Shown here piece after piece: positions 1 to 20,662 of a stretch of 64,000 bases of DNA (the first letter of the stretch is position 1; each line of letters starts with the position of its first letter). The stretch covers positions 12,873 through 76,872 of the forward strand of contig CAYTTY010000012.1 of the NCBI GenBank assembly GCA_964440935.1, in the 5' to 3' direction. The notes beneath the pieces were generated by a model. It was given only the letters and a program-made list of their open reading frames with translations, had not been told where the DNA came from and did not search any database. Position numbers and translations under genes: made by a program. Source of the stretch: an uncultured Ignavibacteria bacterium. Its GTDB lineage: Bacteria; Zixibacteria; MSB-5A5; WJJR01.

Positions 1-1016
1 GATCGTCCGATCGCGTCGCCAATCGTGATTTTCCGTGAGAGATATAAGTCACACAGTGACTGATTCATGGTGCGCATGCCGAACTTCTGGCCGGCCTGAA
101 TCAAGCTGTATACCTGATGAATCTTATCGTCGCGAATGACGGCCCGGATAGCGGGCGTACAGATGAGCACTTCCAACGCCGGCGCGCGTCCGCCGCCAAT
201 CTTTGGAATCAACTGCTGGGACACGACCGCCTGCAAGACGAATGATAACGTAACCCGAACCTGCTCTTGCTGATTCACAGGGAACACGTCGACGATGCGA
301 TTGATCGACTCCGCGGCCGAGTTCGTGTGCAATGTCGCAAATGCCAGGTGACCGGTTTCGGAAATATTCAGCGCCGACTCGACCGTTTCGAGGTCGCGCA
401 TCTCACCGATCAGCACAACATCGGGATCCTCTCGTAAGGCGTATTTCAACGCTGAGGAGAACGACGGCGTGTCGGTGTAGACCTCACGCTGATTGACAAT
501 CGAACTTTCATGGCGGTGGAGATACTCGATCGGGTCTTCCACGGTGATGATGTGGCTGTACCGCTCCTTATTGATCTTATCGATCAACGCCGCCAGGGTT
601 GTCGATTTTCCCGATCCGGTTGGGCCGGTAACCAGAACAAGCCCCCGCGGCAGGTCGGCCAGTTCGGCAATGACCTTCGGGATACCGAGTTCTTCAAAGC
701 TGTTGATCTTGTACGGGATCTGCCGAATGGCGACGGCGACATTACCACGCTGGACAAACACATTACAACGGAACCGGCTCAGATTCTCAATACCGAACGA
801 GAGATCCAGCTCCCAGATTTCTTCGAATTTCTTCCGTTGCTTTTCATTCATCACGCTGTAGGCCAGCTTTTTGGTCTGATCTGGGGACAGCGGTTCCATA
901 TCGGTACGCTGCAATCGCCCATCGATGCGCAATTGCGGCGGTGAGCCGACCGTGAGATGCAAATCGGATGCACCACGTTCGTGCATCAACTCCAGTAGTT
1001 CGCGCAGTGTGACCAT
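1..1016 (-). CDS. pilT: Type IV pilus retraction ATPase PilT (twitching motility), 5' part of gene. The C-terminal end of the protein lies beyond window position 1.
   Basis: Translating the minus strand from the ATG at 1016 gives MVTLRELLELMHERGASDLHLTVGSPPQLRIDG...GLVLVTGPTGSGKSTTLAALIDKIN. The Walker A GPTGSGKST and overall PilT/PilU pattern are present. The ORF runs off the window start. Confidence 0.85.
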   Translation of the reverse strand, partial: MVTLRELLELMHERGASDLHLTVGSPPQLRIDGRLQRTDMEPLSPDQTKKLAYSVMNEKQRKKFEEIWELDLSFGIENLSRFRCNVFVQRGNVAVAIRQIPYKINSFEELGIPKVIAELADLPRGLVLVTGPTGSGKSTTLAALIDKINKERYSHIITVEDPIEYLHRHESSIVNQREVYTDTPSFSSALKYALREDPDVVLIGEMRDLETVESALNISETGHLAFATLHTNSAAESINRIVDVFPVNQQEQVRVTLSFVLQAVVSQQLIPKIGGGRAPALEVLICTPAIRAVIRDDKIHQVYSLIQAGQKFGMRTMNQSLCDLYLSRKITIGDAIGR

Positions 1017-1115
1017 AAGATGTCGTGACCGGGTGCCGTCCGCCCTCCGGGACACCCAGTATGCTCCTCTGTGAGATTATCGGTTCCGAATCCCCATGGC
1101 TTGACGGCTGGTTTT

Positions 1116-2810
1116 TTAGGACGATTCCGCCAGGACTTGCTCCAATGGGATGATCCCGTTTTTCATCTTATCGATAGCGGCCATTCGCAGGGTCATCATG
1201 CCCTCCTTGACCGCCTGTTGCCGAATTTGCTCCACCGAGGCGTCTTCCAGGATCATGCGTTCGATCGCCGTCGTCACCGGCATCACCTCGAAAATGCCGG
1301 TCCGTCCCGACATGCCGGTCTGATTGCAGTCAGAGCAACCCACCCCTTCAAAAATCTTTAAGTCGGCGATTTCCCCGGGCTCCAATGCCAGTTTCTCCAA
1401 GTGTTCATCGGTGACGCTCACTTCGTGTTTACACGACGAGCAAATCTTGCGAATCATTCGCTGGGCCATAATCAACTTCGTCGCCGATGCCACGAGATAT
1501 CCTGGAATGCCCATGTCGATGAGACGCGCGACCGTTGAGGGTGCGTCGTTCGTGTGTAATGTGGACAGCACCAAGTGGCCCGTGAGTGCCGCACGAATGG
1601 CAATCTCGGCCGTCTCGGTATCGCGGATCTCACCGACCATGATGATGTCGGGGTCCTGTCGCAAGAACGAACGCAGCGACTTGGCAAAAGTCAGACCGAT
1701 TTCGGTGCGGACGGCGACCTGATTGATTCCATCGAAGTTGAACTCGACCGGATCCTCGGCGGTCATGATGTTCACATCGCCGCTGTTCAATGTTTTCAGT
1801 GCTGAGTACAGGGTTGTCGTCTTACCCGATCCGGTTGGCCCGGTTACCAGGATCATCCCAAACGGCAGAGTGATCGCGTGCTGGAAATTCTTGAGCGCCA
1901 GGCCCGGGAAACCAAGCCGTGTCAGATCAGTCATGAGCGACTGCGGATCCAGAATTCGCATCACGACCTTCTCACCGAAGATCGTGGGCAACACCGACAC
2001 TCGCAGATCGATGGCGCGCTTGCCCATTTTGACTTTGATGCGTCCGTCCTGCGGCAGCCGGCGTTCGGAAATGTCGAGATCGGCCATGATCTTGACACGT
2101 GAGACAATGGCCGCACGGTATTTGAACGGCAGCGGCTCGGTCTCTTTCAAAACGCCGTCGACACGGTAGCGGACGCGGATGCGTTTTTCGTACGTCTCGA
2201 TATGAATGTCCGACGCGCCACTGCGAATCGCTTCCATGATGAGACCGTCCACCAGCCGCACCAGGGGTTTGTCCTGGACCTGAGATTGCAGGTCGGTTTC
2301 GTTGAAAGAGTCGTCAGTCTCGATGACTTCGAGTCCGCCCTCTTCCTCTTCCAATCCCTTGAGGAGATCGCCAATCCCACTGGCGTTTTTGTAGTACTGG
2401 TCAATGGCCTTCGTGATCGCCCGTTCAGGTGAGATAACGGGCTGAATGGTACAGCCGGTGATGAATTTCAGGGCATCGATGACATAAATATTGTGGGGAT
2501 CGCTGATCGCGACCACCAACGTCTTGTTCAGTTTGGAAATGGCGATGACGTTGAAGCGACGCGCGATGTCCTGCGGAATTAACTGAACAACTTCGGGATT
2601 GAGTTCAACGTCGGAGAGGCGCAATGCGCCGATGTTTAATTGGCGTCCGATGAAATGGGTGAGTTCATCTTCATCGCCGATGGCGCCCATCTTGAGCAGG
2701 ACATCGACGAATTTCTCGTGGGATTCCTTTTGCGTCTCAAGCGCCTGGGTGAGTTGGTCGGGCGTGATCTTGCCCGCTTTCACCAGCATATGGCCAAGTT
2801 CCTGAGACAT
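1116..2810 (-). CDS. pilB: Type IV pilus assembly ATPase PilB (GspE family)
   Basis: 564 aa. N-terminal GSPII_E_N-like region followed by a GspE ATPase core with Walker A GPTGSGKTTT and a C-terminal CxxC...CxxC zinc motif (CSSCKHE...CSDCNQTG). Confidence 0.85.
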   Translation of the reverse strand: MSQELGHMLVKAGKITPDQLTQALETQKESHEKFVDVLLKMGAIGDEDELTHFIGRQLNIGALRLSDVELNPEVVQLIPQDIARRFNVIAISKLNKTLVVAISDPHNIYVIDALKFITGCTIQPVISPERAITKAIDQYYKNASGIGDLLKGLEEEEGGLEVIETDDSFNETDLQSQVQDKPLVRLVDGLIMEAIRSGASDIHIETYEKRIRVRYRVDGVLKETEPLPFKYRAAIVSRVKIMADLDISERRLPQDGRIKVKMGKRAIDLRVSVLPTIFGEKVVMRILDPQSLMTDLTRLGFPGLALKNFQHAITLPFGMILVTGPTGSGKTTTLYSALKTLNSGDVNIMTAEDPVEFNFDGINQVAVRTEIGLTFAKSLRSFLRQDPDIIMVGEIRDTETAEIAIRAALTGHLVLSTLHTNDAPSTVARLIDMGIPGYLVASATKLIMAQRMIRKICSSCKHEVSVTDEHLEKLALEPGEIADLKIFEGVGCSDCNQTGMSGRTGIFEVMPVTTAIERMILEDASVEQIRQQAVKEGMMTLRMAAIDKMKNGIIPLEQVLAESS

Positions 2811-2878
2811 CCATCCTCACTCATTCAGCGCTACGTTGAAACACAATTCACCGTTCCCCCCGAGAAGAGAGAGCGGGA

Positions 2879-3361
2879 CTAATCTTTGAAGACGTCATCG
2901 ATCTTCGAGCCGGCCGACTCAGCAAACTGCGGATCCAACTCCGGTGCATTGTTTTCGGCCTGTGCACGCGTGAGAAGCTCTTTAAGCTTGTCGCTGGTTT
3001 CCTTGGCGTACAAACGCACCATCCCAATGGTCGTGCGATCATCGAAGACGATCGCGAGAATGCATCGTTCGCCGACCAGTGAAATGTGGATATGATCCTT
3101 GTGTCCCTGGTGAAACAGCACCGAGAATTCTGGTTCCCCGACGAGGCGGGCGATCTCCTTGGTCGACGCAAAGCTGCCCGCCAACAGGGCCGACAACGCG
3201 GTGGTATCGAGCGATTGCGTAAATCCCTGGCGTGTGATCAAGTGGCCATCCTTGTCGACCAGCAAGGCACACTTGGCTTCCGCCTTTTTGATCATCCGCA
3301 AAATGATCGCGTTGATCTGATCAATTTGTTCTTCCATCAGGACAAATGACTGAGACGACAT
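2879..3361 (-). CDS. mglB: MglB, roadblock/LC7-domain GTPase-activating partner of MglA. The ORF extends to 3391, but the ATG at 3361 (MSSQSFVLMEEQ...) avoids overlap with mglA.
   Basis: Strong similarity to Myxococcus MglB across its length (VLMEEQIDQINAI...LLVDKDGHLI...DTTALSALLAG...EFSVLFHQGHKDHIHISLVGERCILAIVFDDRTTIGMVRLYAKETSDKL). The acidic C-terminal tail is typical of MglB. Confidence 0.8.
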   Translation of the reverse strand: MSSQSFVLMEEQIDQINAIILRMIKKAEAKCALLVDKDGHLITRQGFTQSLDTTALSALLAGSFASTKEIARLVGEPEFSVLFHQGHKDHIHISLVGERCILAIVFDDRTTIGMVRLYAKETSDKLKELLTRAQAENNAPELDPQFAESAGSKIDDVFKD

Positions 3362-3372
3362 CGGCCACCTCC

Positions 3373-4365
<993 letters not shown>

Positions 4366-4398
4366 AAGTCGTCCGTTCTCCGGTTCGTCATGAACCGT

Positions 4399-4737
4399 TT
4401 AGATTCGCTGTAACTGTTCGATGGCATTGCGAATTTCGAGGCGCACCAGACCGATGTTCACGCGCGGTTCGGTGGTCACGACCAACGTTCCGATTCCCGC
4501 GTTGGACAGGAACATCTTATGATTGTCCGACTCGACCGTCACCTGAGCCAGATCGCCGCTTTTCATTCCATCGAGTGATTTGCGCACGGTGGCGGCAATC
4601 GAGGACGCCAGCGCGCCCACCGTATCGTCGTCGGTCTGACTGGTCAGATCCGCCGCAATGACGATCCCGTCATTGCCGACAACGAGGCTTCCGGTCACGC
4701 CACTCGTTTTGTTGAGCTGTGCCAATACGTCGTACAT
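4399..4737 (-). CDS. Roadblock/LC7-domain protein (second MglB/MglC-like paralog)
   Basis: 112 aa with the single-domain roadblock pattern (GSLVVGNDGIVIAADL...VGALASSIAATV...DLAQVTVESDNHKMFLSNAGIGTLVVTTEP). Its ATG overlaps the stop of the upstream gene (ATGA). Confidence 0.65.
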   Translation of the reverse strand: MYDVLAQLNKTSGVTGSLVVGNDGIVIAADLTSQTDDDTVGALASSIAATVRKSLDGMKSGDLAQVTVESDNHKMFLSNAGIGTLVVTTEPRVNIGLVRLEIRNAIEQLQRI

Positions 4738-4739
4738 CG

Positions 4740-5714
4740 TCAGACCTCCTCCAGGACCGCGTAGCTGTGGCGGCGCCGCTGGATATACTTGAGCATCATG
4801 TCGCGTGCTTGTGTCAGGCGCACACCGACCAAATCATCAACCTCGTAGTCGGTCAGCACGCCCAACCAGAAGTCATCAACCGCTTCCAGAATCACCCGTC
4901 CGGCGCTGGAGCGTATCTCGATGCGCTGCGGTTCCACTTCTCCACCGCGCGAAAGGCAGTACTGATTGAAACGGACCATCTCGATGGAGGTCGGCGCCCA
5001 ATACTCGACCGCCCCGGTGTAATCCTGGCGTTGCCAGAACGCCAATGGCAGCCCTTCGCGATCGACCATCCAGCACATCCGAATGCCGGTATATTCGCCG
5101 ACGTAGGCGACCGCCGCATCGAGATCGGGCGTATTGTCGGGGGCTGCTCCGTGTGATGCGGTTCGTCCGGCTGAATTCGCCGGTCGGGTGGCGACCAGTT
5201 TCGGCGCCGCTGTAACCGTGCCTGTGGTGCTTGATCCCGAAGGGCGGGGCGTCGAGTAGCTCGTGGACATGGCGAACCGCGGCTTTGGCGCCGGCTCGGC
5301 ATAGACGATCTTCCAAATCGCTCTGAGGACTAAGGGCGCCGAAAACACATGCAAAAGGACGGTGAACGGATACGACCACATCGCCATCGACGCCGTGTCC
5401 TGAAATCCGTAGTTGTTATTGAATGCGGCCAAACCGGCGAACAGCAGCGCGCACACCAGGCGATAAACCACCGTCATTCCTGAGGCAATGAACCGTTGCG
5501 ATCCTTTTAGCGTGGGCACCAGGAACAGAAGGGCCACGAAGTAGATCAGCCATTCGACCAAGACGATCGCCGGATGGAATTTGAAGTGGCCCAGACCAAC
5601 CGTTTTCGGATACAGCAGGAGTGGCAGGACGGCCAACACACCGGTCCACAAGATGATCTGACGGACGGCGACAGCGGTGCCGGGTCGTATGGATTGTCGT
5701 CTGGGCATAGTCAT
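4740..5714 (-). CDS. Membrane-anchored protein (about 4 predicted TM helices) with a C-terminal roadblock/LC7-like domain
   Basis: The N-terminal ~150 aa are hydrophobic (LWTGVLAVLPLLLY..., LIYFVALLFLVPTL..., LVCALLFAGLAAF..., FTVLLHVFSAPLVL). Then comes a Pro/Ser/Thr linker, followed by a roadblock-like domain of ~130 aa (GIRMCWMVDREGLPLAF...RIEIRSSAGRVILEAVDDFWLGVLTD). Confidence 0.5.
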   Translation of the reverse strand: MTMPRRQSIRPGTAVAVRQIILWTGVLAVLPLLLYPKTVGLGHFKFHPAIVLVEWLIYFVALLFLVPTLKGSQRFIASGMTVVYRLVCALLFAGLAAFNNNYGFQDTASMAMWSYPFTVLLHVFSAPLVLRAIWKIVYAEPAPKPRFAMSTSYSTPRPSGSSTTGTVTAAPKLVATRPANSAGRTASHGAAPDNTPDLDAAVAYVGEYTGIRMCWMVDREGLPLAFWQRQDYTGAVEYWAPTSIEMVRFNQYCLSRGGEVEPQRIEIRSSAGRVILEAVDDFWLGVLTDYEVDDLVGVRLTQARDMMLKYIQRRRHSYAVLEEV

Positions 5715-5728
5715 AACCTTCTATCGCA

Positions 5729-6631
5729 TCACGGTTCTGAACTCTCATCCGGGTCTGAATGGTTTGTCCTGTCGGAGCGGTCGATGCGCGCATACCAGTC
5801 GATTGCGAAGCGCCGTGCCTCGCCGTAGGACATGCCAGATTCTCCGATCAATCCGAGAATCATCGCGTCAAAACGGCCGCACCAGAGTTCACCCTGATCG
5901 GTTTCAACGCGCAGTTCACCGAGTGATCCACTGCTTATCCCTTTGAGGTGGGAGTCAATCTCACGGAACGCATCGAGAAGCGCGTTCACCGCAGGATCGC
6001 CGGTGGTTGTCGCATCGACGGGATAAATCACGTTCGCATTCTCATCCCAAGCGAACACCGATGTCACACCCCGCAACCGGCGGATCTGGTCGGCCCATTC
6101 CGCCCACGTTAGCGTTTCGTCGGGACGGGGGGTCGTGGCTGTGTCGACCATCTCGGGCTGAGTGTCGGCGGTATCGCCAATGTCGGTCGAATCGATGGTT
6201 TGCGCCGGTCGGTCACGCACTGCCTTCATTCGCGCCACGAGATCAATCACGGCCGGGTTACGCCGCTCAGCTCGCTGCAATCGTTCGATGATCGGCTGCG
6301 CCGCGGACGCGTCACCCATTTCAATGAACAGTTCCGCTTCGAGGAGATCGGTGCCCCGTGTCGAACCATCAATCTCGATCGCTTTGCGCAGCGAAGCCAT
6401 TGCATCGGGCAACATCTTTTGATGCAAAAACAATTTGGTCATTACGAGATGCGCCGGCGCATAGTCAGGATGATGTTTCAGTCCGCTTTTGCAGACGGCG
6501 AAGGCGCGTCCGAACTCACCTCGACGGCGATAGGCCTCAGCGAGGGCCGCAAAGACTTGTGAATGGGGATTGTCGGCCAGTATCGCGAGACACCGCTCGA
6601 TGCGCTCATCGAGTTCCGCTACAGTTATCAT
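5729..6631 (-). CDS. TPR-repeat protein fused to a C-terminal roadblock/LC7-like domain
   Basis: The N-terminal ~140 aa are TPR-like helical repeats (AEAYRRRGEFGRAFAVCKSGLKHHPDYAPAHLVMTKLF...). The C-terminal ~110 aa fit the roadblock fold pattern (VTSVFAWDENANVIYPVD...GELRVETDQGELWCGRFDAMILGLIGES). Confidence 0.5.
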   Translation of the reverse strand: MITVAELDERIERCLAILADNPHSQVFAALAEAYRRRGEFGRAFAVCKSGLKHHPDYAPAHLVMTKLFLHQKMLPDAMASLRKAIEIDGSTRGTDLLEAELFIEMGDASAAQPIIERLQRAERRNPAVIDLVARMKAVRDRPAQTIDSTDIGDTADTQPEMVDTATTPRPDETLTWAEWADQIRRLRGVTSVFAWDENANVIYPVDATTTGDPAVNALLDAFREIDSHLKGISSGSLGELRVETDQGELWCGRFDAMILGLIGESGMSYGEARRFAIDWYARIDRSDRTNHSDPDESSEP

Positions 6632-6822
6632 CTAGCCACCCTGGATAGACCAACCCTCTGAACAGCCCGCACCCTGCTCGCCACTTCGGGCTATCTCCTT
6701 ATGACATTTATAGGTATCGACCCTTGGGGGATTCTTCTTAACGATTGTGTGAACGGTAGAAGTGCCCTGGACAGAATCGATTGCCCGTAATTGGAAGGTG
6801 CACCACAATAGGTTAGCCGTTC

Positions 6823-7221
6823 TCACCCGGCCAGCAAGCGCCGCATCCGCGCGGCTCCCACTAAGATGATGAGCACGGCCCCCAATCGGAGGACACCAAC
6901 CCAGAAATCCGACATCGGCAGGAGCCCCGCTTCGGCTCCGAAACCGGCCATCTGTGCCAATCCGAGGACGAGAAATCCCAATGTGAACCACTGCCAGCCC
7001 TGAGCAATGCGGCCGCCGCGAACAGAATTGTACACCTTGAATGCGGTCAGCGCACAGGCCGCGGCGACCAACAACAGCGCGAGTTCAACAAGTGCGCCAC
7101 CGCTGAACATTCCGCCACCCTGCGATTCTGTTTCGGCCACGGCCATCGATGGATACAGGAGAACCACGGCTGGTCCAGCCAGTCCCAGCAGCCTATGTGT
7201 GATTCGGCTCGACATAATCAT
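6823..7221 (-). CDS. Small integral membrane protein, function unknown
   Basis: 132 aa with 3-4 hydrophobic segments. Its start overlaps the stop of the upstream PATAN gene (7218-7221), consistent with translational coupling. Confidence 0.45.
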   Translation of the reverse strand: MIMSSRITHRLLGLAGPAVVLLYPSMAVAETESQGGGMFSGGALVELALLLVAAACALTAFKVYNSVRGGRIAQGWQWFTLGFLVLGLAQMAGFGAEAGLLPMSDFWVGVLRLGAVLIILVGAARMRRLLAG

Positions 7222-8390
7222 GCTCCCATCAGCGCCCGTCGAAATTCAAGGGCGATATCGTAACGTTCGGCCAGGTCGCGCTTTTGCGCTAAGAGGAAGG
7301 TGACATCTTTTTGTATAGCAGCTCGAACCTGACCGGCGACATGAGGACTGATCAGATCGCGCAGTGCCATCACCTTGTCGGCCAGCAGGCGATTCGCCAA
7401 ATCCAACACCCGATGCAGGCGGATTGGATCGGCGATACGCTTGACGACTTCGCGGAACTCCGACTCCGAACCGCCGCTGGCGGCGGTCAGAATACCGACC
7501 AACTCGGCATGATTGTCGGTGCATTCCGGCGGTACGGTGAAGAAGATCCGGTCTCCGTGAGCACCGAGATATTCCGTAAGCACCTTGTGCACGGACCCGA
7601 GCGAGTGTGAGTACAGCCGGTACACCAAATCGTAGAGCTGGAACTCCTCCGATCGACGTGAGACACGTTCTGCAGCGTCCGGACATTCTTCCAACAAATG
7701 GTTTTGCAGCAGTTTGTGGAGCGACTTCGACGCGGCATATTCACCGTGCGAACCCGATACGAGGATGTCGTTAATACTGCGTTCCCCATTGATGGCGGAG
7801 AGCACTTCGATGTCCTCAGCGGTCAGCGTGATCTCCTCATTTTCGAGCTGAGGCGATGGTGTCAGCCGCAGCACAGTATCACCATCAGGCAATGAATGTG
7901 CGACTTCCATATACTCATCGAACCGACGCGCGCCTTCCATCATCACATTGAGTGAATTCAACTCGACCGGGATATGAGTCGCATCGGGCGCCTCACTATC
8001 GACGAACTCAAATTGGCCATCCGGGTAGCTGAAGACCGAGTAGACCATCTCCTCGACTTGCGCCCGCAGGGCGTCCACCACCTTGCTCCGGTCGCACAGT
8101 CCCAGCTCGATCAATGTGTGTCCCAGACGTTTCCCATTGGCGGATTGACGCTTCAATGCGCGGTCAAGCTCATCGGCACTCAACACACCACGGCGGATCA
8201 ACAACTGGCCGAGCCGTTCTTCTTCAATGTTCGAATCGGATGATGCGGCGACAACGTCGCCACCCTTGAAGTAGATGTACTTCGCTCCCTGAGGCCGGAA
8301 CAGACGCAAAACACCGGTCTTCTTTCCGGTAGCAATCAGTTGGAGGATATCTCCAAATGAGAGTGTGCGCAGATTCCCTGTGAATCCCAT
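7218..8390 (-). CDS. PATAN/DUF4388-domain protein, the type reported to co-occur with MglA-like GTPases and roadblock proteins
   Basis: The N-terminus LRTLSFGDILQLIATGKKTGVLRLF matches the DUF4388/PATAN signature (G.L....l.dllQ.l....ktG.L.l). The remainder is alpha-helical. No receiver domain is evident. Confidence 0.6.
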   Translation of the reverse strand: MGFTGNLRTLSFGDILQLIATGKKTGVLRLFRPQGAKYIYFKGGDVVAASSDSNIEEERLGQLLIRRGVLSADELDRALKRQSANGKRLGHTLIELGLCDRSKVVDALRAQVEEMVYSVFSYPDGQFEFVDSEAPDATHIPVELNSLNVMMEGARRFDEYMEVAHSLPDGDTVLRLTPSPQLENEEITLTAEDIEVLSAINGERSINDILVSGSHGEYAASKSLHKLLQNHLLEECPDAAERVSRRSEEFQLYDLVYRLYSHSLGSVHKVLTEYLGAHGDRIFFTVPPECTDNHAELVGILTAASGGSESEFREVVKRIADPIRLHRVLDLANRLLADKVMALRDLISPHVAGQVRAAIQKDVTFLLAQKRDLAERYDIALEFRRALMGA

Positions 8391-8466
8391 AGAGAAGTTC
8401 CCGACGCGGCCATCCTATGGGCCGCGTTTCGCCCTTTATCTTTATCGGGGGCAAGGGAATCGCGCT

Positions 8467-10782
8467 TTACTGAACGGAGGTGTCCCGCCACCGACTATTT
8501 GCGATGGTTGGCAAAATACTGATCCCGCTGGGCCGCCATTCGATGGTGATCCCACCGTGAATCGGAGTGCACCAGAAGGTGATATCGGGGAAATGCGTGC
8601 GCATGTCGTCGAACCAGTTGCGGGGATTCCGGTGAGGAATGTCGTTGCCGTAGAGCACGACATCCTGAGCCGCCGTCGGGGAGAGCAGGCGGCGCAGAAG
8701 CCGGGGCGGCGTGTTGGCCGGCAGGATGAGGACATCCGATCGTCCCGCCAGCAGGCTTCTCCAACCGACTGTCGCCGTGTCACTTGGAAGTGATCTAATG
8801 AAGGTCGCCTGATGGCCGTGCCGTGCGATCTGGTCGGCCCAGTACCGGTCACGCCGGTTAACTCCGGGAAGCTCGGAGAGATAGCGAACATGATGTGGGG
8901 TGACTCCCGGTGCCCCGTTTTCCAACGGTCTTGATGTCTCGTCAACGAGGCTGGTAAGCCACGCGTCGACATCAAGTTGGTTGGTTGACAGACCTTCATG
9001 CCGCAGGAATGGTTCTATTACCCACTCCCTCATGTTGAATGTCACCTGAGGATCATCGGTGAACAGACGGACTTCATCAGTCGGGCCGCCATTGAAGACC
9101 GCCACATGGGCACGGCCCGCATCCAGGAGTGTGAGTTTGTGGGATGGTGGTGGTGCATCGGACAGGAATGAGATTGTAACGGTGACGATAGCAGTCCCAC
9201 TGAGGTTGTAGGCGGCGGGACGAACTAAACGATACCGGTGTCGCCAGTTCAGCACAGCCATGAACACACCATACACTATCACAATTGAAACCAACGATGG
9301 ATTGGGCCAGCGGAGAACCGCTACCGGCAGCGCTGCAAATGATCCGGCGATAGTCAGAAACAGTTTCAACAGAAGCTGCAGCGGAATGCTCAGCAGCGCC
9401 GCCAACCCCGACCACACCAAGTCGCACAGAAGCAGACCAATGCTGAGGTAGACGCACACCGAGGCCAGTGGAACCAACAGGAGATTCGCTGGCAGAGTGA
9501 CGATCGGCACCTCGGCAAAGTGCCAGGCGATGATCGGGGCTGTCGAGACAGTTGCTGCCGTTGTCGACACGCACAAGATCAGCAGCCACCGTTTCCAGCG
9601 CTTTCGTGGTTGTCGCTTCCAGTAGCGCATGGAACCAACCACTGTGATAATGCTGATGACGGCCGCAAACGAGAGTTGAAACCCGGGTTGAAACAGATGC
9701 GTGGGCGAGTGGATCAGAATAATGATCGCCGCTACGCCGACGGCATTAAGCGGACGGATCGGGCGGCGCATGAGCGATCCCGTCATCAACGCTCCAACCA
9801 TCAAAGACGCCCGCACCACCGATGGTTCATTTCGTGCCAGAAAACAGAAGGCGACAACGACGGCGATTACGAGCACTGATCGCGGCGCGCGCGGCACCCC
9901 AAGCAACTTCAGCGGCAACAGCACCAACCCCACCACCAACCACACATTGGCGCCGGAGACGGCCAGCAGATGCAATGCACCGGCATCGCGGACGGTATTC
10001 AGAATCGTTGGCGGCAACTCGCCGATCTCTCCGATGAGAAACCCCAGAATCAATGTTCGCGGCATTTTGGATAGATGCTCAGCAAACACATCGCGCAGCC
10101 ACTGCCGGACCGGTTCGACCAATCGATGCATTGAGAAACCGTCGTCGGGATGGTCGAGGCGGATGATGCGTCCGGCGGGACGAATGAGCGCATCGATGCC
10201 TTTGTTAAACAGGTGATCGGCATAATCGAATCCGCCCGGATTGCGGCGCTCATGCGGAAGTACGACACGTGCGGGCAGACGCACCAAGTCGCCGTGCCGC
10301 AGGCTGTCGAGAGAGCGGCGTGAGGTAAGCAGGACGGTCGATTTTAGGGGGGCGGTCCCATGACGCGTGCGTACACTGGTAAGACCAATCGGTACGCGCG
10401 AGCCGGAGAGACGCTGCTGCGGCGATCCGGCAACCTGGCCAAACAGTTCGACCGGCCGCTTGTAATCGGCCAAATCGACCAAACCGGGATTGGGACGGTT
10501 GCTGGTAACGGATGAGTAACGGATACCGCCAAGCGTAACCGTTAGAAGAGCGACTGACAAGGTGATGAGTAGAACCGATGATCGACGAGCCAACATGATA
10601 GTCGCAACTGCGAGGACGAACGCCACGCCGCCCGCCCACAGCCCGTCGGCCGTTGTCCAGTGGCTCAACCGCGCACACAGCACACCGGCGCCAATGAGAA
10701 TGGCCAGGAGTAATGCCGGATGTCGTGTGGCCTCGACACGTGATTGCAGTGTCGCTGCGCTGGATGATAGCCGTATCGTCAA
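8467..10782 (-). CDS. comEC: DNA internalization competence channel ComEC/Rec2. The C-terminal metallo-beta-lactamase-like domain lacks the HxHxDH motif.
   Basis: 771 aa. A DUF4131-like N-terminal TM region is followed by a Competence domain with ALHLLAVSGANV (canonical HLLAISGLH-like) and 10+ TM helices. The C-terminal ~250 aa are soluble. Confidence 0.8.
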   Translation of the reverse strand: MTIRLSSSAATLQSRVEATRHPALLLAILIGAGVLCARLSHWTTADGLWAGGVAFVLAVATIMLARRSSVLLITLSVALLTVTLGGIRYSSVTSNRPNPGLVDLADYKRPVELFGQVAGSPQQRLSGSRVPIGLTSVRTRHGTAPLKSTVLLTSRRSLDSLRHGDLVRLPARVVLPHERRNPGGFDYADHLFNKGIDALIRPAGRIIRLDHPDDGFSMHRLVEPVRQWLRDVFAEHLSKMPRTLILGFLIGEIGELPPTILNTVRDAGALHLLAVSGANVWLVVGLVLLPLKLLGVPRAPRSVLVIAVVVAFCFLARNEPSVVRASLMVGALMTGSLMRRPIRPLNAVGVAAIIILIHSPTHLFQPGFQLSFAAVISIITVVGSMRYWKRQPRKRWKRWLLILCVSTTAATVSTAPIIAWHFAEVPIVTLPANLLLVPLASVCVYLSIGLLLCDLVWSGLAALLSIPLQLLLKLFLTIAGSFAALPVAVLRWPNPSLVSIVIVYGVFMAVLNWRHRYRLVRPAAYNLSGTAIVTVTISFLSDAPPPSHKLTLLDAGRAHVAVFNGGPTDEVRLFTDDPQVTFNMREWVIEPFLRHEGLSTNQLDVDAWLTSLVDETSRPLENGAPGVTPHHVRYLSELPGVNRRDRYWADQIARHGHQATFIRSLPSDTATVGWRSLLAGRSDVLILPANTPPRLLRRLLSPTAAQDVVLYGNDIPHRNPRNWFDDMRTHFPDITFWCTPIHGGITIEWRPSGISILPTIANSRWRDTSVQ

Positions 10783-10842
10783 CGCACAAATGCGCCCGAT
10801 GCCGTGGACCTCTCGCCGTTATTCAGTTGGATACTACAGGGC

Positions 10843-12171
10843 CTAAATGAGAAGATAGCGGGCAATGGCTCCGGCCGCAAGAATATACATCACCGGATGG
10901 ACATCGCGCGGCTTGCCGGCTACTAATTTGACAATCGGATACAGGATAAAGCCAAGCGACAATCCATCAGCGATCGACAGCGACAGCGGAATGCCGGTCA
11001 TGATCAAGAACGCGGGAAGCGATTCGGTGACATCATCCCAGGGGATGTCGCGCGCCATGCGCGTCATCAACGCCCCGACGATGATGAGTGCCGGTGCGGT
11101 AATGGGCTGAAGCGTGACGCCCGACGGAAGCGTAATTCCGCCGGCAATCGCTTCGACCAGTGGTGAGATGAACAACGCGAGGAGAAATCCAATGGCCACA
11201 ATAACAGCCGCAAGTCCCGTGCGGGCCCCGACAGCAATCCCGGAGGTTGATTCGACGTACGATGTCAGTGTCGAGGTGCCGAAAATCGCGCCGAGCACGG
11301 TCCCGACCGAATCGGCGGTGAAGGCGCGGCGAGCGCGGGGCAACTCCTCCCCTTTGAAGAAACAACCCTGCTTCCCTATGGCCGCAAGCGTTCCCACCGT
11401 GTCGACGACATCCATAAACAGAAACACAAAGACCGCTGCCAGGAAATCGGCGCTCAGTTCAGGGAGCCAGGTGAGCTGGCCGAACGTGGGAGCAACCGAC
11501 GGTGGCGCACCGACGATCCCGTCGATGTGGATAATCCCGGTCGCCCACGCGATGATCGCCGTGGATAACAGTCCCCAGAAGACGGCGCCGTAAATGTTGC
11601 GCACCATCAACAAGACGGTAATCAACAGTCCCGCCAACGCCAGCAATGTCGGGCCTTGTGTCAAATCCCCAATGCTGACCGGCGCACCGGTTCCTTGGAC
11701 CACGATCCCCGCATTCGTAAATCCGAGAAATGCGATCAACAGCCCGACGCCGATGCCAGTGGCGCTCTTGAGTGAGTCGGGAATCGCGCGGAGTACCGCT
11801 TCGCGCGCCCGGACCACCGACAGAATGACGAAGATGATCCCAGCGTAGAAGGCCGCACTGAGCGCGTCGGTCCAGTGCATGCCGCTGGCCAACACGACGC
11901 CGTAGACGAAGAAGAAATTCTCCCCCATGCCGGGAGCAACGGCGATCGGATAGCGCGCCAGGATGCCCATCATAAGCGTCGCAATCGCCGTCGAGATGCA
12001 GGTCGCGAACATGACGGCGCCGACGTCCATTCCCGCTTCGGCCAGGATCGCCGGTTGCAGGAAGATGATGTACGCCATCGTCAGGAAGGTCGTCGCGCCG
12101 CCGGTGATCTCCCCGCGCCAAGTGGCTCCCTGGCCGGAGAAATCAAACCATTCGGCAAGACGATTTAACAT
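10843..12171 (-). CDS. NCS2-family nucleobase permease (AzgA/PbuG-like guanine/hypoxanthine/adenine transporter)
   Basis: N-terminus MLNRLAEWFDFSGQGATWRGEITGGATTFLTMAYIIFLQPAIL is the AzgA-family hallmark. 442 aa with ~12 TM segments. Confidence 0.85.
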   Translation of the reverse strand: MLNRLAEWFDFSGQGATWRGEITGGATTFLTMAYIIFLQPAILAEAGMDVGAVMFATCISTAIATLMMGILARYPIAVAPGMGENFFFVYGVVLASGMHWTDALSAAFYAGIIFVILSVVRAREAVLRAIPDSLKSATGIGVGLLIAFLGFTNAGIVVQGTGAPVSIGDLTQGPTLLALAGLLITVLLMVRNIYGAVFWGLLSTAIIAWATGIIHIDGIVGAPPSVAPTFGQLTWLPELSADFLAAVFVFLFMDVVDTVGTLAAIGKQGCFFKGEELPRARRAFTADSVGTVLGAIFGTSTLTSYVESTSGIAVGARTGLAAVIVAIGFLLALFISPLVEAIAGGITLPSGVTLQPITAPALIIVGALMTRMARDIPWDDVTESLPAFLIMTGIPLSLSIADGLSLGFILYPIVKLVAGKPRDVHPVMYILAAGAIARYLLI

Positions 12172-12188
12172 GATGGCATAGGTGCTAT

Positions 12189-12920
12189 CTATCGAACGAT
12201 TGCGTAACGGGCTCGCACGCGTGCGCGGATCTCAATGGGCTCAGGATTGACGGTGGTGAAGTCGGACGGATCCGGGATGATGTGCTGTGGACGTTGCTGC
12301 TCAAACAGGTCATCGGAGCCTGGAATTGGATGTGTTTCTTCGGGCGTCGGCGCATTGGAGAGTTCTTCGCAACCCAATGGCGGGCCGAGTGTCACATTCA
12401 ATTCGCGTGCAACGACCTCGGCGCGGCGACGCGCGTCATCAATGGCGTCTTCGAGAGCGGATTCGTAGACCACTCTTGGTTCATCGAGTTGAAAATTCAT
12501 CGTAATCTTCGCTGCCTTGAGATTATGCGCACGATCAAGCATGTCGGTGGCGGCGGTGAAATCATCGAGACGGACACGCATCGTGATCGTCGCCCAGAAC
12601 GCGAGACGTTTCGGTTCATCGGGCAACGGTCTGCGGATCATTGCGCGGTCGAGTCGCCAGTCGCCGGGATCGAGGCCGAATTGACGGAACTCGACAACCA
12701 TTTCCTCGGCACGGGCATCGACCGCCTCGGCAGCCTCTCTCGCGGTTGGAGCAATCGACATGACGGTGATTCCGAGTTCAAGCACTGTTGGCGGTTTACT
12801 CTGCACACTCGAACCCCACACGACGATCTCGCGGTCGGATTGTTGTGCATGTGCCGCCCCGACGGTTAGACATCCGATGAGAATGACGGCAGCCGTTATG
12901 AGTAACGTTCGTTTTGTCAT
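12189..12920 (-). CDS. SIMPL/DUF541 (YggE-like) periplasmic protein with signal peptide
   Basis: The internal Met at 12920 gives MTKRTLLITAAVILIGCLTVGAAHAQ (signal peptide), then a DUF541-like body (KITMNFQLDEP...). The longer ORF upstream to 13109 has no plausible N-terminus. Confidence 0.55.
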   Translation of the reverse strand: MTKRTLLITAAVILIGCLTVGAAHAQQSDREIVVWGSSVQSKPPTVLELGITVMSIAPTAREAAEAVDARAEEMVVEFRQFGLDPGDWRLDRAMIRRPLPDEPKRLAFWATITMRVRLDDFTAATDMLDRAHNLKAAKITMNFQLDEPRVVYESALEDAIDDARRRAEVVARELNVTLGPPLGCEELSNAPTPEETHPIPGSDDLFEQQRPQHIIPDPSDFTTVNPEPIEIRARVRARYAIVR

Positions 12921-14509
12921 TGGTCCTGTCCCCCCCGTGTGGTGTTGGCTCGGCGGGCGCCACCGAGATGGCGGTACCCCAACAGCCAAGTTATCCCGAG
13001 GTAAAGGATGGCAGCAACCAAAATCCCGACGACGGCATGGAGGATTATCCCGATTCCCGATGATGAAAGCGGCATCTGGCGCATAACCCACCATCCCGCA
13101 CCGACACACATCAGCGATAAGAGAGCCAGTTTGATCAACTCCAGCACGTGACAGACAATCCCCAGTGGTCCATAGCGATGAAGCGCGAAAAACCAGAGCA
13201 AGGCTACCTGGATCACCGACGAAATCGCCACCGAAAGCGCCAATCCGGCGAACCCCATCGGACCAACCAGCAACGACATCCCGATCAGATTGGCCACCAC
13301 CGCCGCCACACCGCAGACAGCGGGCGTACGAGTATCCTGATGCGCGTAGAACAATGGCGCCGTGACACGGATCAGCGCCATGGTCGGCAGACCAAGTGAA
13401 TAATACCGGAGTGCGAGGGCCGTCGCCTCAGTGTCGGAAGGAGTGAATCGACCGCGCTGGAACAGTGCGCCGCAGATCGGTTCGGCGAGGATGATGAGGC
13501 CCACGGCAGTTGGTACGACGAGATACAGGACGGTCTGGACACTCTGGGCGTATGTGTCCCTTACGGCTGCCCCATCACCGGCCGCAACATATCCCGAAAG
13601 ACGGGGTAAACCGACCGTGGCCGCGGCGACGGCAAAGACACCGAGTGGCAAAAAGAGAATCCGAAAGGCGAAGTTGAGATACGCTACCGGGCCATCGCCG
13701 AGTGTCCACGCAAAGCGCGTGATGGCGAAGACATTGACCTGAATGGCGGCGATGCCGACAAGCGCGGGGAGCATCAGTTTGAGGATCCTGCCAACCTCGG
13801 TATCACCCCAGCCCGAGCGGATGTGGAACCGGAATCCCAATCGATGTGCCAAAGCGACTTGAATGCCCCACTGGAGAGCTCCGCCGATCAGAACACCCCA
13901 TGCCAAGGCCAGCAACGGTGGATCTGAGTATCGTGAGAGCCACGCCGCGCCCAGAATCACGCCGGCATTAAACCCGGCCGGGGCCAACGCCGGTATGCCG
14001 AAACGCCCCAGGGCATTGAGCGCACCCATGAAGGCCGCCGCCAAGGAGACCAGCAACAGGAACGGGAACATCCAGCGGGCCATGACGATGAGCAGGTCGA
14101 GCTTGCCCGGTGTCTCCTCCACTCCGCCCGAAATCAGCAGCGCCAGTTGCGGCGTGAAGATGATCCCCAAAATGCAGATCAGGCCGATAGCCGGGACGAA
14201 GACCGAGAGGACGCGGTTGAGCAGGTCGAATGCGGCTTGGCGGCCATCTTTGGTGAGGACCCGGGTGAACGATGGCACAAAGGCCGCCGAGAACGCGCCC
14301 TCGGCGAATAAGTCTCTGAGTAAGTTGGGAATACGGAAGGCGGCCACAAACACGTCGGTGAGCGCCCCTGCCCCGAACATATAGGCGATCACCTGCTCGC
14401 GAACCAAACCGAGCACCCGTGAGATCACGGTGGCCCCGGCCACCGTGCCGGTTTGACGCGCGAATCGGGAGCTGGCCTGCGTCTTCGTCGTTGTGTCGCT
14501 GGAGGTCAT
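12917..14509 (-). CDS. murJ: Lipid II flippase MurJ (MviN)
   Basis: ISRVLGLVREQVIAYMFGAGALTDVFVAAFRIPNLLRDLFAEGAFSAAFVP is the MurJ N-terminal signature, and the protein has 14 TM helices. The start is taken at the internal Met (MTSSD...) at 14509, because the ORF extension upstream to 14629 is nonsense. Confidence 0.85.
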   Translation of the reverse strand: MTSSDTTTKTQASSRFARQTGTVAGATVISRVLGLVREQVIAYMFGAGALTDVFVAAFRIPNLLRDLFAEGAFSAAFVPSFTRVLTKDGRQAAFDLLNRVLSVFVPAIGLICILGIIFTPQLALLISGGVEETPGKLDLLIVMARWMFPFLLLVSLAAAFMGALNALGRFGIPALAPAGFNAGVILGAAWLSRYSDPPLLALAWGVLIGGALQWGIQVALAHRLGFRFHIRSGWGDTEVGRILKLMLPALVGIAAIQVNVFAITRFAWTLGDGPVAYLNFAFRILFLPLGVFAVAAATVGLPRLSGYVAAGDGAAVRDTYAQSVQTVLYLVVPTAVGLIILAEPICGALFQRGRFTPSDTEATALALRYYSLGLPTMALIRVTAPLFYAHQDTRTPAVCGVAAVVANLIGMSLLVGPMGFAGLALSVAISSVIQVALLWFFALHRYGPLGIVCHVLELIKLALLSLMCVGAGWWVMRQMPLSSSGIGIILHAVVGILVAAILYLGITWLLGYRHLGGARRANTTRGGQDQ

Positions 14510-14596
14510 TTCGTATATTTCCGAATTCAACTGTAAGCCCACAGGACAGTTGGGGCCACAGTTATTTAGGATCGAAACAGAGGAGAGGATTAACCA

Positions 14597-14863
14597 GTGC
14601 CCAAGCACATATCCGTCGAAAAACGACACCGTCAGAGCCTCGTGCGGAACCGTCGCAACCGGATCGTCAAATCACGCGTCCGCACCGCGTTGAAGAATTT
14701 CGAATCGGCCAGTGAGCCGGAGGCGCGTCAGACGGCCTTGCGCCACGCAATCTCCGCGACCGACAAGGCGGTCTCCAAGCGCGTCATGCACAAGAACAAA
14801 GCCCGCCGTCTGCGCTCACAACTGATGCGCAAGGCCAACAAGGCCACGGCTGAGACGAGCTAG
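14597..14863 (+). CDS. rpsT: 30S ribosomal protein S20
   Basis: GTG start preceded by GAGGAGAGG. The 88-aa product VPKHISVEKRHRQSLVRNRRN...HKNKARRLRSQL matches the S20 pattern. Confidence 0.9.
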   Translation: MPKHISVEKRHRQSLVRNRRNRIVKSRVRTALKNFESASEPEARQTALRHAISATDKAVSKRVMHKNKARRLRSQLMRKANKATAETS

Positions 14864-14884
14864 TCGTTTTCGCAATCAGATTCG

Positions 14885-14923
14885 AGATGGCTGCCATCGA
14901 AGGATGGCGGCCATTTTGTGTTT
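14885..14923 (+). terminator. Rho-independent terminator downstream of rpsT
   Basis: Hairpin GATGGCTGCCATC-GAAG-GATGGCGGCCAT followed by TTTGTGTTT. Confidence 0.6.
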
Positions 14924-15150
14924 GGAGAATTACTAGCACCCGGCTTCAGCCGGGTGATTGCGACAACCCAACCCTCCTCCCCGAAAACCGTTGAAACGGT
15001 TCTCGGAGAAATATTCTTTCCGCCGCAACCACCGCTCTGAAGAGCGGTGTTAAAAAGCATAAAGTCTGCAATGGCGCTCACCTTGTCGGTCCTGTGGAAA
15101 ACCCTTTGACGCGCCGCCTCGCCGGGAGGCTCGCCCTTGATCGGGATCTC

Positions 15151-16624: not shown

Positions 16625-17782
16625 TTAGTCAATGCCCTCAATGCGAAAAGTCTGAAACCGGTCACGATTGAGGAAAAACAGCCGCTTCTCATCCTGGTCG
16701 ATCTGCACCACCGGGTAACCCGGTACCCACTTCCGGGGAGCGTTGTTTTTCGAATCGAGCAGTTCGCCGGTTCGGCTGAATATGAGACAGCGGCTACGGG
16801 TGTGCCGGTCAGACGATGACGGGCCGGGATCATAGTCCAAACCAACAGCGACCAACTCAGCTTCATCGATGAGGTCGACACTGCGGAAATTCCATTCCGG
16901 ATCGCCGGTTTCGGTTTCCCACACCACCTCGGCGCTCGCCACCTGAATGACCGCCGCGTGATCGGCCGAGATCACGGCGGCATGAAGGCCATCGGGCGAG
17001 ACCGCCATGTCGCGGATCGGCTCGACCTCGGTCCGCCAACCGAGGATTTGATTCAATTCACCGTTGTGATGAAAATAAAGACGATCACCGCGCTGGAGCA
17101 TCACCACGGATCCGTCGCGTGACGCCGCCCAATCGTCGGTTGCACCGTATTGGCGAACGACACGCCCCGTGGGCGCATGGGCGGTCAGTCCCGATTGTGA
17201 CGATTCTACGAACACCAGCGATCCATCACGGGAGAACTCGGCACCCTTGTAGCGTTTGACAACCACCGTATCGTGACGCCGTCCGCTGCGATCATAGAAA
17301 CGCAGTACACTCTGGGGCAATCCCTCCGCCCCATCGACACCGACAAACGCACTGCCGGTCGGTGCGATGATGGCCGAGGCAAATGGCGGATCATCGATGC
17401 GTTTAATCTGCTCGCCGTCTTCAGCAAAGAGATCGAATGTCACCGCGCTCAATGTCTTCGGCTGACGGTCGGCAAAGGCGATTACGCCAAGCACGCTCGA
17501 TCCCGGCTCGGCGAAGAGATATTCGTTGCCCCGCAGATTCAGACGACGCTGGCGGCTCCCCTTGGCCGAGTAGAATTCCAGCCGTCCGCCCTTGACATAG
17601 ACCCAGCCGCCATTTTGCAGAACCGTCCAGCGACGGCTCTTGGTGAGATCCGCATGGGAATCAAGTTTAAGCGATTGAGCCTTTGACAGCGCGCCAGTGG
17701 CCAGCACAACGGCGAGCGCAATGAATGTACGAAGAAGGAATGTCCGCAATGTGGTCAACATCGATTCGAAATGATGATACAC
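16625..17782 (-). CDS. Secreted hypothetical protein, probably a beta-propeller. Alternative start at 17761 (MLTTLRTFLL...).
   Basis: Signal peptide LRTFIALAVVLATGALSKAQ. Repeated beta-strand-rich segments. No recognisable catalytic motif. Confidence 0.5.
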   Translation of the reverse strand: MYHHFESMLTTLRTFLLRTFIALAVVLATGALSKAQSLKLDSHADLTKSRRWTVLQNGGWVYVKGGRLEFYSAKGSRQRRLNLRGNEYLFAEPGSSVLGVIAFADRQPKTLSAVTFDLFAEDGEQIKRIDDPPFASAIIAPTGSAFVGVDGAEGLPQSVLRFYDRSGRRHDTVVVKRYKGAEFSRDGSLVFVESSQSGLTAHAPTGRVVRQYGATDDWAASRDGSVVMLQRGDRLYFHHNGELNQILGWRTEVEPIRDMAVSPDGLHAAVISADHAAVIQVASAEVVWETETGDPEWNFRSVDLIDEAELVAVGLDYDPGPSSSDRHTRSRCLIFSRTGELLDSKNNAPRKWVPGYPVVQIDQDEKRLFFLNRDRFQTFRIEGID

Positions 17783-20637: not shown

Positions 20638-20662
20638 GACATTTCCCCCCGTGTACGTCATA

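Follow-up and report, generated by a model that had tools for sequence, protein, structure and literature searches.

To our knowledge, MglA and MglB form the best-understood Ras-like polarity switch of bacteria, and almost all that has been learned about it comes from Myxococcus. There, MglA is a soluble GTPase that reaches the cell pole through RomR and RomX, and MglC and RomY anchor, scaffold or tune the MglA/MglB pair, as Ragulator does for the Rag GTPases; roadblock domains generally dimerise. For another family relevant here, the PATAN proteins, we know of no established ligand. In Myxococcus, MglA-GTP and the TPR protein SgmX are reported to bring the extension ATPase PilB to the pole (PMC7519303, PMC7668184), and the roadblock paralogue MglC to be part of the module (PMC4719450); PATAN proteins co-occur with SgmX in Myxococcus. 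For Thermus, a review describes mislocalised pili in mglAB mutants (PMC12024867). In Synechocystis, PATAN domains bind both PilB1 and PilC and are by themselves enough to reverse phototaxis (bioRxiv 10.1101/2021.06.11.447907), and a survey of prokaryotic small GTPases records occasional PATAN neighbours, mglA and mglB often lying close to PATAN genes (PMC4316618). Here we describe a gene array within a 64,000-nucleotide (nt) stretch of contig CAYTTY010000012.1 (assembly GCA_964440935.1; the whole stretch is hereafter the window) from an uncultured bacterium placed by GTDB in the Zixibacteria, in which mglA and mglB lie together with three further roadblock genes, a PATAN gene, comEC and the type IV pilus motor genes pilB and pilT. 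The array encodes a variant of the MglA/MglB polarity module that most likely controls type IV pili, and we assign a probability of about 0.6 to the reading that, throughout the phylum Zixibacteria, it couples a membrane-tethered MglA-type switch to the type IVa pilus motor.

Every long open reading frame (ORF) in the first 14.6 kb of the window lies on the minus strand, and the ORF map, together with family searches against Pfam and NCBIfam, bears out what an earlier note on this DNA had described, namely ten genes on a single strand running from comEC to pilT. In minus-strand order, and with coordinates given as positions in the window (the array lies within 1-10782), these genes are:

8467..10782, minus strand: comEC, DNA-uptake channel (Pfam Competence, 1.1e-53; DUF4131, 3.8e-22)
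7218..8390, minus strand: PATAN (DUF4388) protein of 390 amino acids (aa) (PF14332, 3.9e-31, 108 bits, cut-off 25, in two stretches flanking an insertion)
6823..7221, minus strand: small membrane protein, 130-132 aa (no match in Pfam or NCBIfam; hydropathy scan: signal-peptide-like N-terminus and 2-3 transmembrane (TM) helices)
5729..6631, minus strand: TPR-roadblock fusion, 300 aa (Pfam TPR_19, 1.9e-12; AlphaFold2 (AF2) model with a mean predicted local distance difference test score (pLDDT) of 83)
4740..5714, minus strand: integral-membrane roadblock protein, 324 aa (no family match at full length; assigned with AF2 and Foldseek)
4399..4737, minus strand: free roadblock/LC7 protein, 112 aa, directly upstream of mglA (Robl_LC7, 3e-16, 59.4 bits)
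3373..4365, minus strand: long mglA, 330 aa (Arf/Ras Pfam matches; E=2.4e-78 to M. xanthus MglA over residues 3-193)
2879..3361, minus strand: mglB, roadblock-fold GTPase-activating protein (GAP), 160 aa including a C-terminal helix region (Robl_LC7, 7e-12)
1116..2810, minus strand: pilB, type IVa pilus extension ATPase (TIGR02538 equivalog, 709.9 bits, cut-off 675.65)
3..1016, minus strand: pilT, type IVa pilus retraction ATPase (T2SSE, 6e-46; TIGR01420, 485.7 bits, cut-off 319.1), its C-terminal ~25-30 aa lying beyond the window start

From comEC to pilT, the junctions measure 76, -4, 191, 14, 2, 33, 11, 68 and 99 nt. The earlier note had also spoken of several ATGA overlaps, which holds for relatives but not for the window itself, where the sole overlap of this kind joins the PATAN stop codon to the start of the small membrane protein gene. 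When compared with the M. xanthus polarity module (MglA, MglB, MglC, RomR/RomX/RomY, SgmX), whose output is polar recruitment of PilB, the array shares an MglA domain with arginine finger and catalytic glutamine, an MglB that matches over its full length, an extra roadblock paralogue and a TPR protein. It differs in that M. xanthus has one extra roadblock protein whereas here there are three, one being integral to the membrane and another fused to TPR repeats, in the 135-aa linker and membrane-targeting-like tail carried by MglA, and in the lack of RomR, RomX, RomY and Frz genes from the array; also, the mgl genes of M. xanthus are presumably not contiguous with pilBTC in the genome, unlike the situation found here.

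We have analysed the conservation of this arrangement by scanning one genome per GTDB species with an alignment of the PATAN protein as query, which yielded 377 confirmed stretches; the counts below refer to the best 80 of these, which are essentially all Zixibacteria, and gene order was read by tblastn with the window proteins. The succession murJ, comEC, PATAN, small TM protein, TPR-roadblock, membrane roadblock, free roadblock, mglA, mglB, pilB and pilT is co-directional and identical in order and strand in all loci. The complete set from comEC to pilT is present in 53 of the 80, while 25 are cut by contig ends and two have a divergent membrane-roadblock gene missed by tblastn; in one of the latter (L052) a 316-aa TM-roadblock ORF does occupy the expected position. 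Among these 80 species-representative loci we observed no deviation from the comEC to pilT order, and no gene is inserted anywhere between PATAN and pilT in the loci examined. Across this span the median gaps range from -19 to 110 nt, being 15 nt between mglA and mglB (67 loci; 11 nt in the window) and 69 nt between mglB and pilB. In most loci tblastn also finds a match to the small membrane protein at this point of the array. The products of pilB and pilT score above the cut-offs of type IVa pilus motor hidden Markov models, and in loci L002-L005 pilT is followed by pilC and then pilS, completing a pilB-pilT-pilC-pilS arrangement. Because the order is common to all 80 loci, with no rearrangement in any that is long enough to show one, the placing of the module beside pilBT and comEC is ancestral to the phylum Zixibacteria and not the accidental juxtaposition that the earlier note had allowed for. 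The array is a ready marker for annotating type IV pilus regulation throughout a candidate phylum.

Two side observations concern these loci. Many metagenome-assembled genome (MAG) records with the Zixibacteria-type array (e.g. L014, L015, L017, L019 and L064) are labelled 'uncultured Ignavibacteria/Ignavibacteriales', 'Acidobacteriota' or 'Candidatus Deferrimicrobium', labels which are probably automated or mis-binned. In the window, as in a minority of relatives, genes for a xanthine/uracil-type permease and a SIMPL-domain protein (10843-13109) lie between murJ and comEC, whereas in most Zixibacteria murJ directly abuts comEC.

The GTPase domain of the window MglA comprises residues 1-195 (nt 3781-4365) and, when aligned to structures 5ymx/6izw, has GPGLSGKTT, DRTLYFDF, YTVPGQ and NKRD at matching positions: it keeps the P-loop GxxxxGKT, the intrinsic arginine finger (R53 in M. 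xanthus), the catalytic Gln82 of TVPGQ and the NKRD motif. Judged by sequence, it is a Group-1-type bacterial Ras-like GTPase, and it is encoded beside its GAP gene mglB. It is not, however, a single-domain protein of ~195 aa, as the GTPase domain is followed by a 135-aa C-terminal extension made of a low-complexity linker (66% P/S/T/A/G/Q), a basic stretch and a tail, and ending in ...RVRTRKNRSLFSRLFGWLFGR. The tail, RSLFSRLFGWLFGR (nt 3376-3417), is like the membrane-targeting sequence (MTS) of MinD, which for the E. coli protein has been used experimentally as KGFLKRLFGG (PMC5471200). Indeed, a linker (104-316 aa), a K/R run and a short aromatic or hydrophobic tail, the commonest being KKRGFFKRLFGLK, are present in each of the 64 distinct Zixibacteria MglAs, and the tail motif is found in 60 of these 64 proteins, against 3 of 6400 shuffled extensions (0.05%) and none of 1566 internal linker windows. 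This points to an MglA that would be held at the inner membrane by its tail. The design is comparable to the MTS of MinD and FtsA and to the hypervariable region plus lipid anchor of eukaryotic Ras and Rho, in which a flexible linker and basic residues lead to a short amphipathic C-terminal tail, but here it sits on an MglA GTPase, has no lipid modification and involves a far longer linker (104-316 aa). The possibility that the long mglA is a frameshift or fusion artefact was considered and rejected, since in 64 genomes the gene is a single uninterrupted ORF that closes with a tail of this type. The window MglA is identical to a protein from an NCBI/Logan assembly; among named relatives, those nearest to it come from Zixibacteria MAGs.

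MglB aligns with its M. xanthus counterpart over residues 5-159, that is over the full length (phmmer E=3.7e-36), and reaches 45.3 bits against PF03259 (cut-off 23); against the Thermus-type equivalog NF052242 it scores 90 bits, below the cut-off of 200. On these matches MglB is a canonical roadblock GAP. The free roadblock protein has archaeal roadblocks as its closest solved relatives (7yh1, E=4e-7), and the triad that it forms with mglA and mglB is also found in other lineages (L089, L090). In the membrane roadblock protein, the AF2 model and a hydropathy scan place approximately four N-terminal TM helices, which a disordered linker joins to the roadblock domain at the C-terminus; this domain is predicted to lie in the cytoplasm, and its modelled order is α-β-β-(loop)-β-β-β-α. 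Among the top 50 PDB matches listed by Foldseek almost all are roadblock folds (LAMTOR2/MP1, MglB, Asgard and Streptomyces roadblocks), with E values of ~1e-4 and target TM-scores of 0.6-0.72, and the isolated domain gives a sub-threshold Robl_LC7 match (E=0.0022, 18.1 bits against a cut-off of 23) covering 80 of the 91 model positions. We found only 23 homologues of this protein, the named ones being from Zixibacteria. The TPR-roadblock fusion is composed of approximately four TPR repeats (residues 1-140, with eight TPR-type helices in the model), a linker and a roadblock domain (residues ~175-280) that is modelled as α-β-β-α-β-β-β-α with pLDDT above 90; its model retrieves both roadblock and TPR matches in Foldseek, and three of its homologues (P0159, P0171 and P0215) carry a precomputed PF03259 match.

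When the alignments of these two families (23 sequences for the membrane roadblock, 45 for the TPR-roadblock) were compared by hhalign with the single free roadblock sequence, the matches were weak (E=0.29 for the membrane family; E=3.8e-4 over 95 columns for the TPR-roadblock family), and for this reason the assignments lean on the structural evidence. Together, the models and profiles place the three extra proteins in the Roadblock/LC7 superfamily. Profile and fold searches thereby detected a roadblock fold in each of these ORFs and PATAN in 7218-8390, as the earlier note had asked for, and the count of four roadblock-domain proteins given in the earlier note is correct, two being recognised by profiles and two by structure prediction and fold search, which place such a domain in both the membrane and the TPR protein. 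The set resembles the Streptomyces conservons (CvnA-D) and the Ragulator-Rag system, where an MglA-like or Rag GTPase is membrane-associated together with several roadblock proteins; in fact LAMTOR2 and MP1 of Ragulator are among the best structural matches of the membrane roadblock protein. Unlike the conservons, the array has neither a sensor kinase nor DUF742, and unlike Ragulator, it has a polytopic TM domain fused to the roadblock rather than a lipidated LAMTOR1 wrapper, the likeness being architectural only.

The PATAN domain contains an α-helical insertion at residues 59-111 (nt 8058-8216) that matches NF053729, an MshE-related cyclic di-GMP (c-di-GMP) motif, with 58.6 bits (cut-off 38) over model positions 1-53 of 53, and whose PDB sequence matches are the N-termini of PilF, MshE and PilB. 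Its sequence is RLGQLLIRRGVLSADELDRALKRQ-SANGK-RLGHTLIELGLCDRSKVVDALRAQ. In the MshEN design, two 24-residue RLGxx(L/V/I)(L/V/I)xxG(L/V/I)(L/V/I)xxxxLxxxLxxQ motifs are separated by a 5-residue spacer (PMC5013675), and by eye the insertion follows it with an exact motif 1, a motif 2 with two conservative deviations and a spacer of five residues. The same model recognises residues 5-55 of PilB (nt 2646-2798; NF053729 47.2 bits, cut-off 38; Pfam MshEN 7e-20), and the PATAN protein is a likely c-di-GMP sensor, the PilB N-terminus a candidate receptor. The remainder of the PATAN protein has a helical C-terminal half, and residues 170-390 gave no match to Response_reg or any other Pfam family, so that a PatA-type receiver (REC) domain is lacking; an exact look-up of its sequence returned no record. 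An α-helical insertion in the PATAN domain is also a feature of the cyanobacterial PATAN-REC regulators PixG, PixE and TaxP, and the Synechocystis PATAN domain, taken on its own, binds the N-terminal domains of PilB1 and PilC and localises to the membrane (bioRxiv 10.1101/2021.06.11.447907). The window protein differs from these regulators in that it has no receiver domain, its insertion is by score a full MshEN motif, and its gene is linked to mglAB and not to a chemotaxis operon. With the MshEN receptors (V. cholerae MshE and the PilB/PilF N-termini) it shares the two 24-residue motifs and the 5-residue spacer, but here the motif lies within a PATAN domain and not at the front of an ATPase, its binding is a prediction, and it is degenerate in most other Zixibacteria. 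An MshEN motif inside a PATAN domain suggests a route by which c-di-GMP may reach the pilus motor via PATAN proteins.

On the reading favoured here, MglA would cycle between GTP and GDP forms at the inner membrane, where its tail would hold it, and MglB would act as the GAP that turns it off. The extra roadblock proteins would dimerise and, by analogy with the systems described above, may serve the MglA/MglB pair as membrane anchors, scaffolds or modulators, while the TPR domain might recruit a partner, as SgmX does for MglA-GTP and PilB. The PATAN protein would sense c-di-GMP and bind PilB or PilC, like the Synechocystis PATAN regulators, so that c-di-GMP would act both on this protein and on PilB. 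As its output, the system would set the place and time at which PilB or PilT engages the pilus machine, and thereby extension and retraction, which could serve twitching, adhesion and possibly DNA uptake through ComEC.

The distribution of such modules was further analysed by a phmmer search of the MglA GTPase domain against 1.84 billion representatives, of which the best 150 matches were considered (P0228-P0377). All of these are long (255-800 aa), 38 ending in a MinD-like amphipathic tail and 16 in a terminal TM helix, with further classes ending in '...RRAA' or 'DSPFIDLQPFRGVD'; one cluster with a TM tail includes a member from Candidatus Schekmanbacteria. As the best 150 matches are all long, a large class of long MglAs may have escaped surveys limited to single-domain small GTPases. 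Four loci outside the Zixibacteria have the following content, in gene order and with protein lengths in brackets:

L087: TPR protein (691), PATAN protein, MglA with amphipathic tail, MglB
L089: PATAN protein, TPR-roadblock protein (296), roadblock protein (142, MP1-like), roadblock protein (110), MglA with amphipathic tail, MglB
L090: TPR-roadblock protein (352), roadblock protein (115), MglA with TM tail, MglB, PATAN protein, TPR-β-propeller protein (1065)
L091: MglA with amphipathic tail, MglB, on a contig that begins at mglA

As in the window, there are four roadblock proteins in L089, where the 296-aa protein was classed as TPR-roadblock by eye. Homology is confirmed by phmmer for the roadblock, MglB and PATAN proteins and for the TPR-roadblock protein of L090. 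Since related loci occur in other lineages, the core module, as recognised by homology (PATAN, TPR, usually extra roadblocks, a putatively membrane-anchored long MglA, and MglB), is wider than the Zixibacteria. Set against this four-locus sample, Zixibacteria alone have a polytopic membrane roadblock and the small membrane protein, and in them alone is the module fused with comEC and pilBTCS. We put forward, as a tentative generalisation that we hold to be possible but short of probable, that many uncultured bacteria besides the Zixibacteria have a membrane-resident MglA, tethered through a long disordered linker with an amphipathic or TM tail, a roadblock stack (MglB, a free roadblock, a TPR-roadblock and, in Zixibacteria, the polytopic membrane roadblock) and a PATAN protein; in Zixibacteria c-di-GMP would be its input and the type IVa pilus motor its output. 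If this is true, bacteria would possess, in the membrane-resident MglA with its roadblock stack, an equivalent of two eukaryotic arrangements, the Ras hypervariable-region anchor and Ragulator-Rag, where roadblock dimers hold a GTPase at a membrane.

Several observations weigh against coupling of a tethered switch to the pilus motor. All functional claims made here for an uncultured phylum draw on gene order and homology. The functionally unrelated murJ is just as syntenic upstream, and therefore conserved order within one phylum is weak functional evidence for comEC, the outermost gene; such conservation can be inherited instead of selected. The hydrophobic moment of the MglA tail is unexceptional, its value being reached by 227 of 2000 shuffles (Eisenberg scale), and as it gives no added support, the case for an MTS stands on motif conservation and likeness to MinD. 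The strict RLG...Q motif of the PATAN insertion is confined to the subclade of the window, many other Zixibacteria having Y, F, L or M at position 1 and H at position 24, as far as can be judged from the part of 79 PATAN proteins in which strict and relaxed regular expressions located the motif block. This suggests that c-di-GMP binding by PATAN was lost or altered within the Zixibacteria. Since it is chiefly the subclade of the window that retains the canonical Arg and Gln, any c-di-GMP input may be lineage-specific. Finally, the related modules of L087, L089 and L090 stand without adjacent pil genes, none being found nearby in these three loci or in L091.

One alternative is that the order is inherited and not functional: comEC, the PATAN and small membrane genes, the roadblock-mglAB genes and pilBTC would be separate units that have been adjacent since the Zixibacteria ancestor, and MglA would control a non-pilus process, such as general polarity, division-site choice, another surface machine or envelope processes. 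In its favour, murJ is conserved upstream although unrelated in function, a conserved promoter-like motif (see below) does divide the array, and elsewhere the related modules adjoin PmbA/TldD, EF-G or peptidase genes and not pil genes. However, the murJ-comEC junction tolerates insertions, exceeding 300 nt in 15 of 64 loci and including extra genes (SIMPL, permease), whereas the stretch from PATAN to pilT tolerates none; the gaps between mglB and pilB are short; and the MglA, TPR and PATAN proteins each have a published direct link to PilB. We regard this explanation as unlikely.

The tail of MglA could also be read differently, its extension being a disordered spacer that ends in a protein-binding peptide, docking for example a roadblock dimer or PilB, with no membrane anchor. 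An indecisive hydrophobic moment leaves room for this, as do the many long MglAs elsewhere that end in the other conserved peptide-like tails ('...RRAA' and 'DSPFIDLQPFRGVD' classes). Yet the tail nearly matches the MinD sequence and is preceded by a polybasic run, and the existence of a parallel class of long MglAs with a true hydrophobic TM helix at the end (16 of the 150 representatives) argues that membrane attachment is the selected property, so that a purely protein-binding tail appears distinctly unlikely.

In respect to comEC, the gene call starts at 10683 and gives a protein of 738 aa, homologues having 636 to 770 aa. Its last 251 aa (8467-9222) gave no match to a metallo-β-lactamase domain (Lactamase_B) or any other Pfam family even at E≤5, and the protein scores 117 bits against TIGR00361, the ComEC/Rec2 equivalog, below the cut-off of 190; the metallo-β-lactamase nuclease domain may thus be degenerate or absent. 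That the module is 'dedicated to T4P/DNA uptake', as the earlier note suggested, is a reading of gene order only, and the link to comEC is weaker than that to type IV pili. That the module is a competence regulator, positioning or gating pilus-dependent DNA uptake with ComEC as channel instead of setting motility polarity, is very improbable: comEC does lie immediately upstream of the PATAN gene in all loci (median gap 118 nt), and a review cites a Thermus study on MglA/MglB, pilus functions and natural competence (PMC12024867, ref. 80), but the gap exceeds 300 nt in 3 loci, the array lacks comEA, comF and dprA, and ComEC has the shortcomings just described.

The coupling of a membrane-tethered MglA switch to the pilus motor remains the preferred reading. 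In the literature searched we found no paper on MglA in Zixibacteria and no report of an MglA with a membrane-targeting sequence, and a 2014 survey of prokaryotic small GTPases makes no mention of such tailed forms. The component families and the PATAN-mglAB neighbourhood are already known; what is new with respect to that literature is the fixed eleven-gene, phylum-wide architecture, the four-roadblock set with a membrane-integral member, the membrane-targeting-like MglA tail and the MshEN motif inside the PATAN protein. The proposal of an 'expanded, possibly undescribed variant' of the polarity switch is in this sense supported. Such a natural variant raises the questions of whether membrane tethering replaces polar landmark proteins and whether, as in eukaryotes, roadblock dimers act as membrane scaffolds for the GTPases of bacteria. 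A tethered MglA with a roadblock stack is likely to surprise specialists, and the predictions are testable in vitro.

The transcriptional layout of the array was inspected for conserved signals. A scan of 1-15000 for σ70 promoters and terminators returned counts at or below shuffle expectation, with no convincing terminator within the array, and an Rfam scan of the whole window gave no match at gathering thresholds. The 191-nt gap upstream of the TPR-roadblock gene does contain one further feature:

6715..6741, minus strand: conserved promoter-like bipartite motif, TTAAGAAG-n12-GTCGATAC

Within this gap T.AAG...G.CGATA is invariant across 14 aligned species, and 20 of the 32 regular-expression matches of the motif in 1.36 Mb of loci fall 80-160 nt upstream of the TPR-roadblock gene. 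At this distance from the start, T(T/A)AAG-n15-G(T)CGATA is found in 18 of 59 loci (it was seen in L002 and L007-L020), and lineages with a gap of only ~20 nt before the gene are without it. The motif resembles a σ28/FliA promoter, the σ28 consensus being TAAAGTTT-n11-GCCGATAA (PMC2859248), and is a candidate internal promoter; given its position in the 191-nt gap, the array probably comprises at least two transcription units. A second GTCGATAYC site, at 20056-20064, was rejected, as it lies inside an ORF, is without the upstream half-site and occurs at chance expectation.

Further along the window, three minus-strand ORFs of 307-385 aa (16625-17782, 18542-19465 and 19708-20685) have no Pfam match at E≤1e-6 and lie amid housekeeping genes. 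A Pfam search of ten ORFs in 16.6-28.3 kb revealed no pilus or c-di-GMP gene among them; four had no match, and the others include ornithine carbamoyltransferase, HslUV-like proteins, a XerC-like integrase, topoisomerase I and guanylate kinase.

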